From a plasmid: a DNA stretch of 48,288 bases. Positions 1-48,288 of the stretch are shown piece by piece. A program made the translations under genes and the position numbers. The stretch lies in the sequence record NZ_CP009216.1. One strand, 5' to 3'. Every line of letters starts with the position of its first letter. Positions within the stretch are counted from its first letter, which is position 1. Under the pieces are notes generated by a model, which was given only the letters and a program-made list of their open reading frames with translations, was not told where the DNA came from and searched no databases.

Positions 1-23
1 GGTTCAATTCCCGGCGGCTCCAC
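1..23 (+). tRNA. 3' end of a host tRNA gene (T-arm and 3' acceptor strand); the 5' part lies outside the window
   Basis: GGTTCAATTCC T-loop/stem followed by a GC-rich 7-nt acceptor strand and CCA-like end. An integrase gene lies immediately downstream, as expected for attL at a tRNA 3' end. Confidence 0.55.
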
Positions 24-5909: not shown

Positions 5910-5917
5910 CCTGTACG

Positions 5918-5948
5918 TTTGACATTATTACAAACTATGGAATAGGAT
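5918..5948 (+). promoter_or_regulatory. promoter/operator box B (TTTGACATTATTACAAACTATGGAATAGGAT), preceded by a GTTTGAC direct repeat
   Basis: TTGACA -35 and TAGGAT -10-like element about 18 bp apart. It is paralogous to boxes A and C. Confidence 0.4.
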
Positions 5949-5966
5949 TAGGGCAACAACGAAAGA

Positions 5967-5980
5967 GGGGCTGCAACCCC
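5967..5980 (+). promoter_or_regulatory. CTGCAA-loop hairpin copy 3 (GGGG-CTGCAA-CCCC)
   Basis: Located 16 nt upstream of the ATG at 5996, with an AGAAAGGA RBS between. Confidence 0.5.
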
Positions 5981-5995
5981 AGAAAGGACACCGCG

Positions 5996-6211
5996 ATGAA
6001 AACCACCGCCGACAACCTCACCGCACAGAACATCGTCGACAAGCTCGAAACCGAGATGGCCATGCAGAACGGTTGGGAGTTCAGCACCACCCTGAAGGAA
6101 TCCCTCGAAGACACCGTCCAAGAGCTTATGTACGCCGACGGCTCAGCCCTCCCTGCGTTCCTCCGCGACCTGGCCTACGCCCTCGACAACCTGGCCCTCG
6201 AGCTCGACTAA
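5996..6211 (+). CDS. hypothetical small acidic protein (71 aa)
   Basis: ATG with RBS. The track ORF 5906..6211 extends upstream without an RBS. Confidence 0.6.
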   Translation: MKTTADNLTAQNIVDKLETEMAMQNGWEFSTTLKESLEDTVQELMYADGSALPAFLRDLAYALDNLALELD

Positions 6212-6258
6212 CCGCAACCGCCAGCCTCCGGGCCGGCAATCAGCCCGACCAGCAGGCA

Positions 6259-6306
6259 GGGGAGTGCGAGCCTCCCCACGGGCACTAGGGGCACCCGCCC
6301 CGCACC
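6259..6306 (+). promoter_or_regulatory. intergenic GC hairpin element A (GGGGAG-tgcgagc-CTCCCC, then ACGGGCAC...TAGGGGCACCCGCCCC)
   Basis: Paralogous to elements at 12228, 7605 and 6965. It is terminator-like or a processing-site candidate. Confidence 0.4.
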
Positions 6307-6311
6307 AAGAC

Positions 6312-6325
6312 GGCGCTGCAACGCC
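6312..6325 (+). promoter_or_regulatory. CTGCAA-loop hairpin copy 4 (GGCG-CTGCAA-CGCC)
   Basis: Located 18 nt upstream of the ATG at 6343. Confidence 0.5.
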
Positions 6326-6342
6326 GAGGAAGGAACACAACG

Positions 6343-8477: not shown

Positions 8478-8961
8478 CATCAACATCGAGGGCGGAACCC
8501 TGGTCACAGACCCGGAGCTGCGCTACACCCCTTCGGGCGCTGCGGTGGCGAACTTCCGCGTCGCTGCCAACAGCCGCCGGTTCAACAAGGAGACGAATCA
8601 GTGGGAGGGCGGCGACACCACGTTCCTCACCTGCAACATCTGGCGGGAGGCCGCGGAGAACGTGGCCAACAGCCTGCAGAAGGGCATGCGGGTGAACGTC
8701 ACCGGCGAGCTGCAGCAGCGCTCCTACCAGACGAAGGAGGGGGAGCAGCGCACCGTGTTTGAGGTGAACGTGCGCGAGGTGGCTCCGTCGCTGAAGTTCG
8801 CCACCGCGCAGGTGAACCGCAACCAGTCGAATGGCGGCGGGGGTCAGCAGCAGGGTGGCTGGGGGCAGAAGAGCGGCCAGACGCCGCAGAATGACCCGTG
8901 GGGCGGCGCGACCGGCGACACGGGCGGGTTCGGCGGCGGCGACCCGGAGCCGCCGTTCTAG
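8464..8961 (+). CDS. ssb: single-stranded DNA-binding protein
   Basis: OB-fold N-terminus, Gly/Gln-rich linker and a C-terminal DPEPPF acidic tail. Confidence 0.9.
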
Positions 8962-9021
8962 GAACGCTCGCCGGGTAAGGTAACGGCGGGAACACAGAAA
9001 ACAACAAGGGAGACGGAACCC

Positions 9022-9441
9022 ATGAATAAGAAAATTGCAGCTTTGGCCGCGGCCACCGCGCTCACCCTCACCGCGTGCGGCGACACCTCCGACGAGGACG
9101 CAGAGCCAGCCACCAGCACCTACGAGTACAAAGACCCAGTAGATGAACAGGCGAAACCTACCCATGATTGGCTCATGGAGCAGGGTGCGAAGTCTGTAGG
9201 GCTGTCAAACGATACATTCCGCAGCGTCGTTATTTTGTCTTGCGGGTACGCGGAACAGGAACAGTCAGAGTCCCTTGAGACAATCCGCGCCAAGGGGGAA
9301 TCTGCAATTCGTGCCCAGGTGAAGGACGTACCGGAGGATAAGGTGACCCCGGCGTTCTTAGCAGCTACCGCTACGGGTTGCCCTCACCTTATTCAAGGGC
9401 AGGGCGTGAATGGTTTGAAGCTAGTTCTTGCGGGGCAGTAG
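9022..9441 (+). CDS. secreted lipoprotein (signal peptide + lipobox LTAC), low-GC moron
   Basis: MNKKIAALAAATALTLTACG. The gene is clearly lower in GC (about 52%), with A/T-ending codons. Confidence 0.7.
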   Translation: MNKKIAALAAATALTLTACGDTSDEDAEPATSTYEYKDPVDEQAKPTHDWLMEQGAKSVGLSNDTFRSVVILSCGYAEQEQSESLETIRAKGESAIRAQVKDVPEDKVTPAFLAATATGCPHLIQGQGVNGLKLVLAGQ

Positions 9442-9641
9442 TGGACAGTGAGCATGACGAGCTGTTGGCCGCTGCCGTTGAGGCGCACCAGGACTACGAA
9501 GGCGCGGTGGAGGCTGCTAAGGCTGCACGCCGTTTGGAGTTCCAGCGAGCCGTAGACGGTGGAGTGAGCCGTGGGCAGATTGCGCGCCGGTTGGGTCGTT
9601 CAACAGCGTGGGTGAGCCGGATTGTTTCTGGCGACCGCTGA
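9441..9641 (+). CDS. small HTH DNA-binding protein (66 aa), GTG start
   Basis: C-terminal HTH VSRGQIARRLGRSTAWVSRIV. Overlaps the lipoprotein stop. Confidence 0.45.
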   Translation: MDSEHDELLAAAVEAHQDYEGAVEAAKAARRLEFQRAVDGGVSRGQIARRLGRSTAWVSRIVSGDR

Positions 9642-9644
9642 CCA

Positions 9645-9673
9645 TTGACAAAATGGCAAGGGTCGGGTAAGTT
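9645..9673 (+). promoter_or_regulatory. strong sigma-70-like promoter TTGACA-17-TAAGTT
   Basis: Near-consensus hexamers with 17-bp spacing, upstream of the antirepressor gene. Confidence 0.5.
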
Positions 9674-9676
9674 AAA

Positions 9677-9716
9677 GGGCACTAGGTCACTTAGACCTGG
9701 TGCCCGATATTTTTGG
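9677..9716 (+). terminator. 29-bp palindrome GGGCACTAGGTC-actta-GACCTGGTGCCC followed by ATATTTTTGG (terminator/attenuator or operator)
   Basis: A 12-bp stem with 1 mismatch plus a T tract, located immediately after the promoter -10. A further hairpin follows at 9718-9745, and an RBS-sequestering hairpin CAACTaataaggAGTTG at 9754-9770. Confidence 0.5.
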
Positions 9717-9774
9717 GCCACGGCGGTGCTACCAACACCCCGTGGCGTGGACTCAACTAATAAGGAGTTGAATC

Positions 9775-10620
9775 ATGGGTCAGTTTGTCATACCCGCAGG
9801 GGCAGAACAATCCCCCACCCCTTTTGACGTGTATCGCCAGGAGCGCGAGGACGGCTCCGAGTTTTGGAGCGCCCGCGACCTCGCCCAACTCATGGGCTAC
9901 CGCAAGTGGCAGAACTTCGAGAACGCACTGAACCGCGCCATTAAGGCAGCGCACAACCAAAAAATGGACGTTACCAGCCTTTTTATCCGATCTAGTAAAA
10001 AGACCGCGGGCCGTCCACAAGAGGACTACGAGTTAACCCGGTTCGCGGCGTACCTCGTCGCCATGAACGGCGACCCTAACAAGCCGGAAGTCGCGTCCGC
10101 GCAGGCATACTTCGCCACCCGCACCCGCCAGGCCGAAACGCAGCAACCCGCACAACTCACGGACGAGGAACTACTCTCCCGTGCCCTCATGGTGGCCAAC
10201 TCCAAGATGGAGCGCCTGGAGGCCGAGAAGGCCGAAGCGGTGGAACTCTCCGAGGCTGCAATGGCGCGTGCCCACGTCGCGGAAGCCGAAGCGGACGAGG
10301 CGCGCCCCAAGGCAGAGGCGTTCGACAGTTTCATGCGAACCGACGGCACCTACTACATGGGTGCAGTAGCGAAAATGCTGGGCATGGGGCAAAACGAGTT
10401 GTTCCGCAGGCTACGGAAGGAACGAGTGCTTATCCCGTCGGGGCACCTGTACAACACCCCGTACCGGCAGTATGAGCGCTACTTTCTGGTTCGTCCGCAC
10501 AAGTATGTTAACGCGGACGGGCGGGAGTTCTTGAAGCACACAACGTACGTGAAGCCGGCGGGGGTTGAGTTTATCCGACGACGGCTGGGGGTTGAGGCTC
10601 CGTTCGTTTCCGTGTCGTAG
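9775..10620 (+). CDS. phage antirepressor (Bro-N/DinD-like N-terminal domain + KilA-C C-terminal domain)
   Basis: N-terminal FWSARDLAQLMGYRKWQNFENALNRAIKAAHNQ (Bro-N/DinD signature). C-terminal MGAVAKMLGMGQNELFRRLRKERVL...NTPYRQYERYFLV (KilA-C). Confidence 0.7.
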   Translation: MGQFVIPAGAEQSPTPFDVYRQEREDGSEFWSARDLAQLMGYRKWQNFENALNRAIKAAHNQKMDVTSLFIRSSKKTAGRPQEDYELTRFAAYLVAMNGDPNKPEVASAQAYFATRTRQAETQQPAQLTDEELLSRALMVANSKMERLEAEKAEAVELSEAAMARAHVAEAEADEARPKAEAFDSFMRTDGTYYMGAVAKMLGMGQNELFRRLRKERVLIPSGHLYNTPYRQYERYFLVRPHKYVNADGREFLKHTTYVKPAGVEFIRRRLGVEAPFVSVS

Positions 10621-10771
10621 TTGGTTTCACGGAGAAGGGGAGTTTTGGGGTAGTGCTGCAACGCTATCCCCGGCCATGTAATTAGAACGTGTGTTCGTGT
10701 ACGTCGCAAATGTGTTCTACCATTGACGGCACCGAGCCGACCGCATAACCACCCGGAGCAGACTTCCTAAC

Positions 10772-10951
10772 ATGATTGAGACAACAGCCCTCACCCCGCC
10801 TGGTGCGCCCTGCAAAGTCACCAGGGCGCACGACCCGAAGGACACCTTCACCGCCTACGAAATAGAGGTCAACGGCCAAACCATCGAGCTAGAACCCTCC
10901 CACGTCGCGGAGCTCTCCCGCGTGCTCACCCTCATTGCGGGTGGGAACTGA
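10772..10951 (+). CDS. possible small protein (59 aa)
   Basis: ATG with a weak GGAG. It is below the track cutoff. The overlapping - strand ORF 10855..11943 is R/P-rich and spurious. Confidence 0.3.
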   Translation: MIETTALTPPGAPCKVTRAHDPKDTFTAYEIEVNGQTIELEPSHVAELSRVLTLIAGGN

Positions 10952-11557: not shown

Positions 11558-11940
11558 CGCAGTGGGACTTGAAGTTGCCGTGGGTGAAGCCGCCGCTGTC
11601 GCTCAATGACCGCGAGCATTGGGCTCCTAGGGCGAAGAAGCAGAAGGCGGTGCGGGAGGCGTCGGCGCTGCTGGCTCGGCAGGCGGGTATCCCGCGGTTG
11701 GGGACGGCGAAGGTGCGGCTGGTGTGGTTGGTGGCTGACCGGCGTCGGCGTGACCGGGAGAACATCACTGCGACGCTGAAGCCTGCGATTGACGGGCTGG
11801 TGGACGCGGGTGTTGTTGAGGATGACTGCTGGTGGATTGTGACTGAATCGTCGTGTGCGATTTCGTTGGTAGAGAAGGGGTGTGAGGGGGTTTACCTGCA
11901 GGTTTTGGGTGAGCCGGAGGGCGTTTCGGTTTCCCTTTGA
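11554..11940 (+). CDS. rusA: RusA-like Holliday-junction resolvase
   Basis: RRDRENITATLKPAIDGLVDAGVVEDD matches the RusA D-x-D-N...K...D...DD pattern. GTGA overlap. Confidence 0.6.
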   Translation: MTQWDLKLPWVKPPLSLNDREHWAPRAKKQKAVREASALLARQAGIPRLGTAKVRLVWLVADRRRRDRENITATLKPAIDGLVDAGVVEDDCWWIVTESSCAISLVEKGCEGVYLQVLGEPEGVSVSL

Positions 11941-11966
11941 CATTATGACAAAGTGTGTAATAAACT
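11935..11966 (+). promoter_or_regulatory. promoter/operator box C (TTTGACATTATGACAAAGTGTGTAATAAACT)
   Basis: TTGACA -35 and TAAACT -10-like element. It is a 17-bp quasi-palindrome, paralogous to boxes A and B. Confidence 0.4.
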
Positions 11967-47019: not shown

Positions 47020-47066
47020 CCCACCTGGCCCCCATTCTGGCTATGCGCCAAGGTGGGGTCTTTTTA
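47020..47066 (+). terminator. rho-independent terminator CCCACCTGG-...-CCAAGGTGGG then GTCTTTTTA
   Basis: A 9-10-bp stem plus a T tract at the end of the lysis cassette. A second hairpin GCCCCGCGTTAGCGGGGTTTTC lies at about 47143-47165. Confidence 0.5.
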
Positions 47067-47165
47067 CGTTTGTGGGGTGTGCTACATTCTGGGTGTTCCC
47101 CGCCTTGCGGGGGTGAGCCGTAGTACAAAGGCGGCTTCTTTCTGCCCCGCGTTAGCGGGGTTTTC

Positions 47166-47612
47166 TTATTTCACCCAGCGCTGCACCGTGGACGGGGTGC
47201 GACCGCACAGCTTCGCCACCTGGTACGCAGTCACGTCGTACGACATAGCGTCGCGCACCCACTCCGTGCGGGCGTCTTTCAGCTCCGTGGTGACCGCTTC
47301 GAGCTCGCGCACCTGGTCGTCGGACCACTTAATCTGGGCCATGTAGACGGCCTGGTGGTAACCGTCGCGCCCAGCCCGCGCCTTAGCGAGCGCGTCCGCA
47401 AACAGGCTTTCCACCCACACGCGCTGCTCCGGTGCAAGCTCGGACATGGCATTGTCGTAGTCGGCTTCCGACGCGGCCAAGCTCTCGCGTGCGGAGCGCA
47501 GTGCCACGGCGTTACCGCCGGCGACCTCCGCGCCCACAGCCTTAGCCGCCAAGCCGATGAGGATGATCTTCTCGCCAATGTGGGAGAGGGTATCCGGGCT
47601 GATGATTTGCAC
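47166..47612 (-). CDS. hypothetical protein with a C-terminal HTH (148 aa); second gene of the right-end - strand operon
   Basis: C-terminal YQVAKLCGRTPSTVQRWVK HTH. GTG start overlapping the upstream stop. Confidence 0.55.
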   Translation of the reverse strand: MQIISPDTLSHIGEKIILIGLAAKAVGAEVAGGNAVALRSARESLAASEADYDNAMSELAPEQRVWVESLFADALAKARAGRDGYHQAVYMAQIKWSDDQVRELEAVTTELKDARTEWVRDAMSYDVTAYQVAKLCGRTPSTVQRWVK

Positions 47613-47614
47613 GG

Positions 47615-48031
47615 CTAGTTCTCCTGCTCGAAGTAGCTGGCGACCTGCTCTGCGGCCTTCGGGATTTCCCGGTCGCGGAACTCGCGCATGAACGCCTCCA
47701 CCTCGCCTAGGCGGCCCGCGTCTGCGAGTTTCGGCAGAATGTTCATGCGTTCGCGGCGGGTTTTGTTTTCGAGGAAGTGCGCGTACATCTGCTTCGAGGA
47801 GTCGTAGTCTAGTCCGTGGTGCTCGGCGCGGATGCGGTCGGCGAGGCGGGGGTTGATGACGTCGAGCAGCTCAAGCTTTGCGATTGCTCGGCTGTGGTGG
47901 ATGTCCATGATGTTGGTGTAGGCGTCCCAGGATTCGTCGTCTTTGTAGTCGCGGAGGATGTCGAGGTGGGTTGCGTAGATGCTGTTTTCGAGGATCTGGG
48001 TGGTGATGGTGATGATCTGTTGGCGGTTCAT
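47615..48031 (-). CDS. hypothetical all-alpha protein (138 aa from MNRQQ; the track alternative start at 48082 lies inside the palindrome)
   Basis: AAGGAGACACC-ATG RBS at the 48031 start. Confidence 0.5.
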   Translation of the reverse strand: MNRQQIITITTQILENSIYATHLDILRDYKDDESWDAYTNIMDIHHSRAIAKLELLDVINPRLADRIRAEHHGLDYDSSKQMYAHFLENKTRRERMNILPKLADAGRLGEVEAFMREFRDREIPKAAEQVASYFEQEN

Positions 48032-48077
48032 GGTGTCTCCTTGTGGGGGCTGTTCTTTGCTTGTGAATCCATTATGA

Positions 48078-48103
48078 CGCATTGCGCACTAGTATGCAAT
48101 GCG
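48078..48103. promoter_or_regulatory. 26-bp quasi-palindrome CGCATTGCgcACTAGTatGCAATGCG followed by TACTAGTGTAG; candidate operator/promoter of the - strand operon
   Basis: 8-bp perfect outer arms and an ACTAGT centre. It shares a CACTAGTA core with the int-xis palindrome at 1394-1415. Confidence 0.4.
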
Positions 48104-48288
48104 TACTAGTGTAGGGGTAGGAAACGGGGGTGACGCCAACGCCCGCGGGTCACTGTCGCGTCACTTTCCACAGTGACAGCACAGTGAGGAAAGTGACACC
48201 GCAATTACGGCGGGAGGTCTGGAGGTTGGGGGAAAGTTGAGGGAACGTACCTTCTTCCCCTGGTGAATATGCCGGTGGGCGGGGTGTC

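Follow-up and report, generated by a model that had tools for sequence, protein, structure and literature searches.

A recurrent cassette of an exported-protein gene, a small helix-turn-helix gene and a structured leader ahead of an antirepressor-class gene in a temperate phage genome

How an antirepressor gene might be governed by the DNA in front of it is the question raised by positions 9022-10620 of a 48,288-bp stretch of DNA (sequence record NZ_CP009216.1; the whole stretch is called the window below), where a lipoprotein gene and a small helix-turn-helix (HTH) gene are followed by a promoter, three hairpins and an antirepressor-class gene, Ant. The anatomy of this locus, the conservation of its promoter, the covariation of three stems in its leader and a recurring gene order are seen directly. 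We propose that the region is one portable regulatory module, organised like the 'ant moron' of phage P22 and built from different parts, a reading to which we give a probability of roughly 0.55.

The first gene (9022-9441, + strand) encodes an exported lipoprotein of 139 residues with a signal peptide, the lipobox LTAC (Cys19) and a mature domain. Its TAG stop codon overlaps the GTG start codon of the HTH gene (TAGTG), which encodes a protein of 66 residues (9441-9641, + strand) with an N-terminal helix ELLAAAVEAH..Y and a C-terminal HTH. The match of this protein to Pfam HTH_23 is a marginal pass, 25.9 bits against a cut-off of 24.6, and weak similarity is found to sigma region 4, Cro and immunity repressors. 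The promoter, termed P_ant (9645-9673, + strand), consists of TTGACA (9645-9650), a spacer of 17 nucleotides (nt) and TAAGTT (9668-9673). Taking as SigA-type a promoter with a TTGACA-like -35 and a TANNNT -10 that stand 16-18 nt apart and are kept in relatives, P_ant belongs to this type. Ant itself (9775-10620, + strand, 281 residues) contains Bro-N and KilAC (ANT) domains according to Pfam, PHROGs and NCBIfam, with 35.4 bits for Bro-N (PF02498, cut-off 25.6), 86.5 bits for ANT/KilAC (PF03374, cut-off 25.3) and a match to PHROG 63, 'anti-repressor Ant', at 1e-35. A first-pass annotation made from the letters had named a lipoprotein frame with an LTAC lipobox at 9022-9441, a small HTH gene after it, the promoter TTGACA-17-TAAGTT at 9645-9673 and a Bro-N/KilA-C protein, and all of these hold, the promoter exactly.

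P_ant is kept in the related contigs used for comparison, which bear L-numbers. The hexamers and a spacing of 17-18 nt are retained while the spacer diverges in L124-L128, L135, L190, L141, L142 and L170; among the closer relatives (L003 to L129) the -35 is TTGACA, TTGCCA or TAGACA and the -10 is TAAGTT, TAAGCT, TAAATT, TAAGGT or TAAAGT. The window has 5 matches to TTGACN-16..18-TANNNT where 0.75 would be expected, a count that no shuffle reached, and 4 of them are on the + strand of the early region. The early promoters at 1996-2025, 5919-5948 and 11937-11966 have in common an extended motif that runs across the spacer (TTGACATTATTACAAACTGTGTAATA-like); the main repressor or a Cro-like protein may recognise it as a shared operator. 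P_ant is only a diverged relative of these three and does not carry the spacer motif; therefore, it is probably under a different control from theirs. A sar-like promoter on the - strand was found neither in the window nor in L127, and the matches in L124 and L125 are not conserved.

The intergenic region between the HTH and Ant genes folds better than 200 of 200 shuffles (z = -3.9) and contains three hairpins on the + strand. Hairpin 1 (9677-9705, GGGCACTAGGTC-ACTTA-GACCTGGTGCCC) begins 3 nt downstream of the -10, which puts it at or near the predicted transcription start of P_ant. It has 12 bp, 8 of them G-C and one G.U, with a loop of 5 nt and a folding energy of -24.6 kcal/mol (z = -6.4), making it the strongest terminator-like structure on the + strand in any intergenic region of the first 20 kb. 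The T tract GATATTTTT (9706-9714, + strand) completes a terminator-like pattern, and the sequence after the stem, GAUAUUUUU, brings five U beyond a gap of 4 nt. Hairpin 2 (9717-9746, + strand) consists of 7 bp, a bulged C9724 and 4 bp (11 pairs) around the loop CTACCAA, with -20.6 kcal/mol (z = -2.0); it had been drawn at 9718-9745 and is real, if larger. Hairpin 3 (9750-9774, + strand) has the core TCAACT/AGTTGA and ends 1 nt before the ATG of Ant. The Shine-Dalgarno sequence AAGGAG (9762-9767) lies within it, with four of its nucleotides in the loop and two in the 3' arm of the stem. The first-pass view of a third hairpin that pairs the ribosome-binding site was right as to the hairpin, which covaries, and not as to full pairing, the Shine-Dalgarno sequence being mostly in the loop.

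Comparison of graded relatives (L003/L004/L006, which are 94% identical, then L124, L125/L126 and L127-L129) revealed the same three stems throughout. In seven close variants 99.5% of the proposed pairs are standard, and at five pairs both partners have changed, three of these pairs belonging to hairpin 3 and two to the apex of hairpin 2; the stem of hairpin 1 is conserved in sequence and its changes retain G.U pairing. A covariance model (R1) built from the close variants was used to search viral contigs and matched the three-hairpin leader in L135, L190, L141, L142, L170, L050 (twice), L032, L073 and L189. In the alignment of 17 sequences both partners change at 29 of the 31 pairs, including all 8 of hairpin 3, and 95.9% of the cells are paired against 72% in shuffles and 31-47% with slid partners, although the sequences were aligned to the model itself, so that the paired fraction is inflated, which to that extent counts against our interpretation. 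All three hairpins are thus supported by compensatory base changes. The leaders of a subgroup 2 have a hairpin 1 of different sequence. As for the searches themselves, the first pattern used in the viral scan was too strict and missed known members, and a looser one gave chance matches for the most part, from which the model sifted 6 new loci; a metagenome scan with a hairpin 2/3 pattern gave 4 loci, none of them upheld by the covariance model. Rfam gave no match at gathering score in the whole window, and only chance-level ones at E <= 5 (9300-10900). Nothing else in the neighbourhood is as well conserved as the leader and Ant: at 76% identity to its L125/L127 orthologues, Ant exceeds every other protein nearby, compared with 61% for WhiB, 50% for SSB, 46-49% for the HTH protein and 34-36% for the lipoprotein.

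The leader recurs as part of a cassette. Its order is a lipoprotein or anchored exported protein, an HTH protein of about 65 residues, the promoter, the leader and an antirepressor-class gene, and it is present in L125-L129, L135, L190, L141, L142, L170, L050 and L032. The downstream gene encodes Bro-N and KilAC in the window, L125 and L127; an AntA-like N-terminus and a KilAC-like C-terminus, as read from the sequence, in L135, L190, L141, L142 and L170; AntA only in L050, as confirmed by Pfam; and a protein of no recognised kind in L032 and L189. The suggestion of the first-pass annotation that promoter and hairpins control antirepressor expression has gained from this comparison to the extent that they form a dedicated control region maintained in evolution, as the conserved promoter and the covarying stems recur before such genes in distant phages. 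L050 and L032 each have two HTH-leader-gene units in tandem. In those two contigs, 2-3 antirepressor-type genes (Bro-N/KilAC, AntA, Rha/KilAC) stand in tandem at 2587-5351 of L050 and 920-3771 of L032, and most of them have a leader copy and a small HTH gene ahead of them. In the relatives of the window the cassette comes after the SSB gene, within the early operon, whereas in L190 it is divergent, adjoins the capsid and scaffold genes and lies outside the early operon; these differing genome contexts indicate a mobile module. In addition, a block at 8953-9882 is 98.5% identical to L003 with flanks of about 92%, and this block together with the conserved Ant and leader would fit module exchange between phages. 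The relatives in which the same slot is filled have core proteins of only 50-60% identity.

The small HTH gene is the candidate regulator of P_ant. A protein of the same family, with the signature ELLxAAVxAHxxY ... G.S...V.RI, is encoded upstream of every leader copy that has enough flanking sequence. Its recognition-helix type tracks the -35 region: RSTAWVSRIV goes with TTGACA, LSESYVGRIA with TTGCCA, LSESTVSAIK with TTGCGA, and M/I/L-S-D/N-T/V-QV-T/S-RI-S/A with TAGACA or TTGACA. In L141 one HTH/-35 type is joined to the -10 and hairpin 1 of another subgroup. Imperfect inverted repeats lie at the -35, namely TTGACA-AAA-TGGCAA in the window, GACAA-AA-TTGTC in L127 and TGCGA-AATA-TCGCA in L190. 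This suggests that the predicted operator of the HTH protein overlaps the -35.

Hairpin 1 admits of more than one role. Both of its arms keep their sequence (GGGCACYAGGTC) between phages with 35-50% identity in the neighbouring genes, its loop is free to vary and yet always 5 nt long, and its distance from the -10 is fixed at 3 nt, as would be expected if it were primarily a DNA operator, that is, a 12-5-12 palindrome from about -2 to +27 of P_ant to which a dimeric repressor binds. The 66-residue HTH protein or the main repressor would then block transcription of Ant in the lysogen, and the RNA hairpin would be a by-product. Such an operator would also accommodate the outer GGG:CCC pairs, which a transcript beginning 7 nt after the -10 would not include, and the 8-mer GCACTAGG of the left arm, which has three intergenic copies in the window, one directly 5' of the -35 of an early promoter near the repressor gene. 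However, the departures of hairpin 1 from symmetry are nearly all G.U on the + strand (G.T in the DNA), with a single A.C mismatch overall, which is the pattern of RNA pairing, where a half-site model predicts no bias, and the homologous hairpin of L001 keeps 15 of 15 pairs, 4 of them as G.U. This bias argues that selection acts on the + strand RNA. Moreover, the palindrome is constant while the recognition helix of the HTH protein switches type, the hairpin 1 of subgroup 2 differs in sequence, and the hairpins of L001 and L103 stand after genes, with T tracts, where no promoter or Ant gene is nearby. No further half-site copy is present in the window within 1 mismatch, and the count at 3 mismatches is that of chance. 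We consider the operator an unlikely account of hairpin 1. The three copies of GCACTAGG lie at 1987, 6282 and 9679, all on the + strand; their number is near chance (about 1.9 expected, an estimate), and the placement of the one beside the repressor gene is odd.

Termination at hairpin 1 is plausible in the window. In L001 and L002, which have the lipoprotein gene without the HTH or Ant gene, a canonical terminator directly follows the lipoprotein gene, and in a Corynebacterium genome the hairpin 1 stem, followed by TTTTGT, ends a gene. The terminators of L001, L002 and L103 have canonical U tracts. Among the leaders, only those of the window, L003 and L124 have the T tract; in L125-L128, which do not, and in the distant leaders the linker after hairpin 1 is A/U-rich, not U-rich. 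Termination is not the shared function of hairpin 1; what the relatives have in common, judging from the alignments, is a stable stem right where the predicted P_ant transcript begins. The earlier description of a 29-bp palindrome with a T tract as a terminator or attenuator holds for the subgroup of the window, and not for the relatives that keep the hairpin without the tract. A pairing between the 3' arm of hairpin 1 and the 5' flank of hairpin 2 (GUGCCC / GGGCCAC) was rejected as an antiterminator, since subgroup 2 does not have it and its position is downstream of the terminator.

Hairpin 2 has relatives elsewhere in the phage. The early region contains nine + strand hairpins with a variable G+C stem of 4-5 bp around CTGCAA (loops at 2062, 3974, 5971, 6316, 7022, 7771, 10656, 11993 and 12292), all with the invariant apex G[CTGCAA]C, and most are directly followed by AGAAAGGA and a start codon; the 8-mer GCTGCAAC occurs 16 times in the window against 2.8 expected. 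L001, L125, L127 and L128 also have the G[CTGCAA]C family, with many different covarying stems. No CTGCAA hairpin stands ahead of the lipoprotein, HTH or Ant genes of the window, where hairpin 2 is a relative with a divergent loop. The apex of hairpin 2 in L125, L127 and L032 is GGTG-C(A/T)GCAA-CACC, which places hairpin 2 in the CTGCAA family. These hairpins with their ribosome-binding sites behave like the SAS/ESAS repeats of Cluster K mycobacteriophages, which occur in one orientation among non-structural genes just 5' of the starts, include in some cases an inverted repeat with a variable spacer, and are thought to be tied to translation initiation (PMC3203893). The 13-bp SAS GGGATAGGAGCCC has 0 matches in the window at up to 2 mismatches. 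Unlike ESAS, with its conserved arms and variable spacer, the hairpins of the window have a variable stem and a conserved loop, and the Ant leader adds two hairpins of its own.

The lipoprotein at the head of the cassette carries the marks of a bacterial lipoprotein (Lgt/LspA substrate), for which we required a positive N-terminus, a hydrophobic core and [LVI][ASTVI][GAS]C about 15-35 residues from the N-terminus: its N-terminus MNKKIAALAAATALTLTAC is K-rich and continues into a hydrophobic core and the lipobox. Cys19 is kept in all homologues that have a lipobox (LTAC, LTGC or LAAC), and in two remote homologues an N-terminal transmembrane (TM) anchor replaces the lipobox. The mature domain has two more conserved cysteines (C74, C120) and a TGCPHL motif, and is predicted to be all-helical with low confidence (AlphaFold mean pLDDT 45.7). 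The five differences from L003 are all at the third codon position and all synonymous, indicating that the gene is under purifying selection. The family is tiny, with 3 clusters among 5.8 billion proteins and 2 remote TM-anchored members among 1.8 billion representatives. Profile searches, which the first-pass annotation had called for, returned no family: Pfam gave none at E <= 0.01 and noise only at E <= 10, the PHROGs matches span the signal peptide only, and NCBIfam lipo_Cory_WKLS scored 21.3 bits, below its cut-off of 105. None of these profile sets contains an exclusion-protein family that matched, and tblastn of the lipoprotein against phage records gave no match. A genome scan with the lipoprotein alignment gave 27 pattern matches, none of them real.

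Is the lipoprotein gene a recent arrival of its own? The first-pass annotation had taken it for one, with about 52% GC. Exact computation gives 56.9%, so that the deviation from the 64.6% of the window had been overstated; with a third-position GC (GC3) of 0.64, the gene still falls in the lowest 1.1% of 420-bp windows. The low-GC zone extends from about 8890 to about 11190 and covers the lipoprotein and HTH genes, the intergenic region, Ant and the next small gene, in other words the whole cassette. If the lipoprotein gene were a separate recent low-GC moron, and the hairpins a phage-specific attenuator or antitermination switch, its low GC, the extreme rarity of its family, the recent exchange indicated by the 98.5% block at 8953-9882 and the terminator that closes the gene in L001 and L002 would all be accounted for. 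But distant relatives fill the same slot with homologous or analogous exported proteins, the homology between L001 and the window begins just about 30 nt before the lipoprotein ATG and holds no consensus promoter, and the hairpins are common to many phages, the attenuation T tract being the lineage-specific part. This explanation is improbable. The exported proteins in the slot are unrelated between lineages: L135 and L190 have LAGC lipoproteins (181-182 residues), L170 has an LTAC lipoprotein of 243 residues, L142 has a VTGC lipoprotein, and L125, L127 and possibly L141 have TM-anchored relatives of the lipoprotein of the window. From this comparison the lipoprotein seems to hold the variable slot of a mobile module rather than to be a lone recent moron. 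The suggestion that it serves superinfection exclusion suits an accessory gene in a variable exported slot, although no exclusion family matched; its position in that slot makes an exclusion or surface function a reasonable guess, and nothing more.

Llp of T5 and Cor of phi80 and N15 are lipoproteins that act in superinfection exclusion. Ltp of the Streptococcus thermophilus phage TP-J34 is another (PMC3952083). Similar to these, the lipoprotein of the window is predicted to be a small, phage-encoded surface lipoprotein, fast-evolving and replaceable; unlike them, it lies among early lytic genes outside the lysogeny module, and the Pfam and PHROGs searches above showed no sequence similarity to them.

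Taken together, we propose that the module works as two transcription units. In the first, the lipoprotein and the translationally coupled HTH protein would be read together, the transcript ending in the window at hairpin 1 and its T tract. The second would be driven independently by P_ant, 3 bases before hairpin 1, with a start inside or at the foot of that hairpin, and would consist of a leader of about 95 nt with the three conserved hairpins and then the antirepressor-class gene. The HTH protein would bind the imperfect inverted repeat over the -35 (TTGACA-AAA-TGGCAA) and set the activity of P_ant. Hairpin 1 would halt read-through from upstream and, on P_ant transcripts, form a 5'-terminal stem shielding the mRNA. 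Hairpin 2 would be a copy of the recurrent CNGCAA-loop hairpin of the phage, read by whatever factor reads the others, and hairpin 3 would keep the ribosome-binding site in a weak stem-loop, tuning translation of Ant or being bound by a protein. The lipoprotein slot would hold lineage-specific exported proteins, most simply with exclusion or cell-surface functions. A bolder form of this proposal, which we put forward tentatively and do not expect to hold in full, is that the leader and the HTH protein constitute a previously undescribed secondary-immunity switch of temperate actinobacterial phages, functionally equivalent to immI, gating KilAC/AntA antirepressors at transcription and translation, travelling with an exchangeable exclusion slot and tied through hairpin 2 to the CUGCAA-loop system, which an RNA-binding factor would read at many early genes.

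Several further observations weigh against the proposed module. The HTH gene adjoins the -35 region, so its co-variation with the -35 could be linkage alone, and the -35 inverted repeat is imperfect and not evident in every type. The tetranucleotide GATA separates the T tract from the stem of hairpin 1, and since L125-L128 do not have the tract, termination is not a conserved property of this hairpin. A start about 7 nt after the -10 would drop the invariant outer GGG:CCC pairs from P_ant transcripts, which fits a role in read-through RNA or in DNA better than one as a 5' cap. Hairpin 3 taken alone is weak and not significant (-6.1 kcal/mol; z = -1.9 in the window and -0.7 in L003). No consensus promoter, and no -35 match, was found upstream of the lipoprotein-HTH unit; a possible -10-only element TAAGGT (8976-8981, + strand) may serve this unit, as a TANNNT hexamer stands 34-43 nt before the start of the exported protein in the window, L001, L002, L125 and L127, and in L135/L190 TAAGGT is 7 nt ahead of the exported-protein ATG. 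Finally, the antirepressor function of this Bro-N/KilAC protein is an annotation drawn from family membership.

The region might also be ordinary punctuation, a terminator, a constitutive promoter and a generic structured 5' untranslated region without specific regulation of Ant. P_ant is near consensus and, as described above, stands apart from the three other early promoters, hairpin 2 resembles the hairpin ahead of many early genes, and the Ant homologues of the isolated phages CicholasNage and ThankyouJordi have no leader at all. The leader is lacking from the Ant homologues of the annotated isolates, with a possible exception in prophiFVLQ01-1, where an intergenic region gave no covariance-model match. 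Yet the leader is tied specifically to small-HTH and antirepressor-class genes across unrelated genome contexts, it is better conserved than the flanking proteins, and the stem that holds the Shine-Dalgarno sequence covaries, making mere punctuation quite improbable. Least probable of all is a small processed or terminated RNA from the leader that acts in trans on Ant mRNA or transcription like C4 of P1/P7, CA of N15 or CI RNA of P4, since a strong hairpin with a T tract within 40 nt of the promoter (in the window), the KilAC and AntA families of P1/N15-type antirepressors and hairpin apexes that vary most between close variants, as specificity loops would, are outweighed by the lack of an Rfam match to C4 or any family, a T tract that is not conserved, no complementarity of the hairpin 1 or hairpin 2 loop to the ribosome-binding site kept across variants (by inspection) and loop variants out of step with those of hairpin 3.

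The proposed module can be set beside known control regions of antirepressors. The 'ant moron' or immI of P22-like phages comprises mnt, arc, sar and ant with sieA alongside (PMC2629481). Similar to immI, the cassette is a self-contained insert found at differing places in related phages, with an antirepressor-type gene under its own promoter, an adjoining small DNA-binding regulator (predicted here), RNA-level control at the ribosome-binding site of ant (inferred here) and a membrane exclusion protein next door (putative here). Unlike immI, it has no homology to the P22 genes: its regulator is an HTH protein instead of the ribbon-helix-helix Arc and Mnt, with Pfam matches to HTH and Bro-N/ANT only, Ant is a Bro-N and KilAC protein instead of a P22-type Ant, no antisense sar-type promoter is conserved, all genes lie on one strand, and the host is actinobacterial. 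The likeness would be one of logic and modularity only, as every defining feature that was tested fails. In P1 and P7, immI consists of the c4 antisense RNA, icd and ant, and N15 has an anti-immunity operon with a processed CA RNA; in these phages antirepressors with KilAC/AntA domains are controlled by a structured RNA whose sequence lies directly ahead of them on one and the same transcript. The cassette shares the KilAC and AntA families with them, whereas Rfam C4 is unmatched, no icd-like coupled frame is present and no complementarity between loop and ribosome-binding site is conserved.

To our knowledge, the few phages in which the control of antirepressors is well understood are enterobacterial (P22, P1 and N15), and we know of no described regulation behind the annotation 'antirepressor' in the very large collection of actinobacteriophages. 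What is new here is a conserved, covariation-supported leader and a three-gene cassette, with a mechanism that is plausible and entirely inferred. A covarying leader together with a dedicated regulator gene offers a testable handle on lysis-lysogeny or anti-immunity gating in actinophages, and the leader is a candidate RNA family not represented in Rfam. The variable exported slot is a place to seek new exclusion or surface-modifying proteins in phages of corynebacteria or mycolata, and the recurrent CUGCAA-loop hairpins pose a second, broader puzzle akin to the unexplained SAS/ESAS.

Within Ant, the differences from the 94%-identical L003 cluster, indels included, in a patch of 200 bp at 9883-10083, and the first 100 bp and the remainder of the gene are nearly identical. 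The pattern is suggestive of a segment, in the Bro-N domain or the linker, that has been swapped or evolves fast.

The window as a whole is the complete genome of a temperate phage with 64.6% GC. Its gene order starts with the integrase gene (158-1384) and an Xis-like HTH gene, followed by the main repressor of 118 residues (1615-1971, - strand, leftward), a long rightward early region, the structural genes at about 20 to 43 kb and then the lysis genes. The window starts (1-24) with the 3' end of a tRNA gene (GGTTCAATTCCCGGCGGCTCCACC), which is probably the attachment core. At 1226-1304 of L003 the end of the window (48212-48288) runs straight into its start, indicating that the genome is complete and circularly permuted or excised. 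A DNA-level search of isolated phages with the window gave no match, and its portal protein shares no more than about 33% identity with those of known actinophages. Indirect hints point to Corynebacterium as host, namely the best genome matches of Ant (Corynebacterium), a human-skin metagenome contig and the weak match to the WKL lipoprotein profile.

Two other places differ from L003. A segment of about 1.2 kb (47022-48211) is missing from that contig. On its - strand lie two genes, 47166-47612 and 47615-48082, which match no family and whose GC (0.545) is lower than anywhere else in the window, and a palindromic promoter-like region is at 48083-48110; the segment looks like a separate moron adjoining the attachment site. 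At 5910-6342 the window is about 350 bp longer than L003, and the extra DNA, which comprises the promoter at 5919 and a gene for 71 residues (5996-6211), is another small insert with its own promoter. In addition, a strong terminator-like hairpin with a T-rich tail (1670-1697, + strand) lies inside the 3' end of the leftward repressor gene, where it is positioned to halt rightward transcription from the int/xis side.

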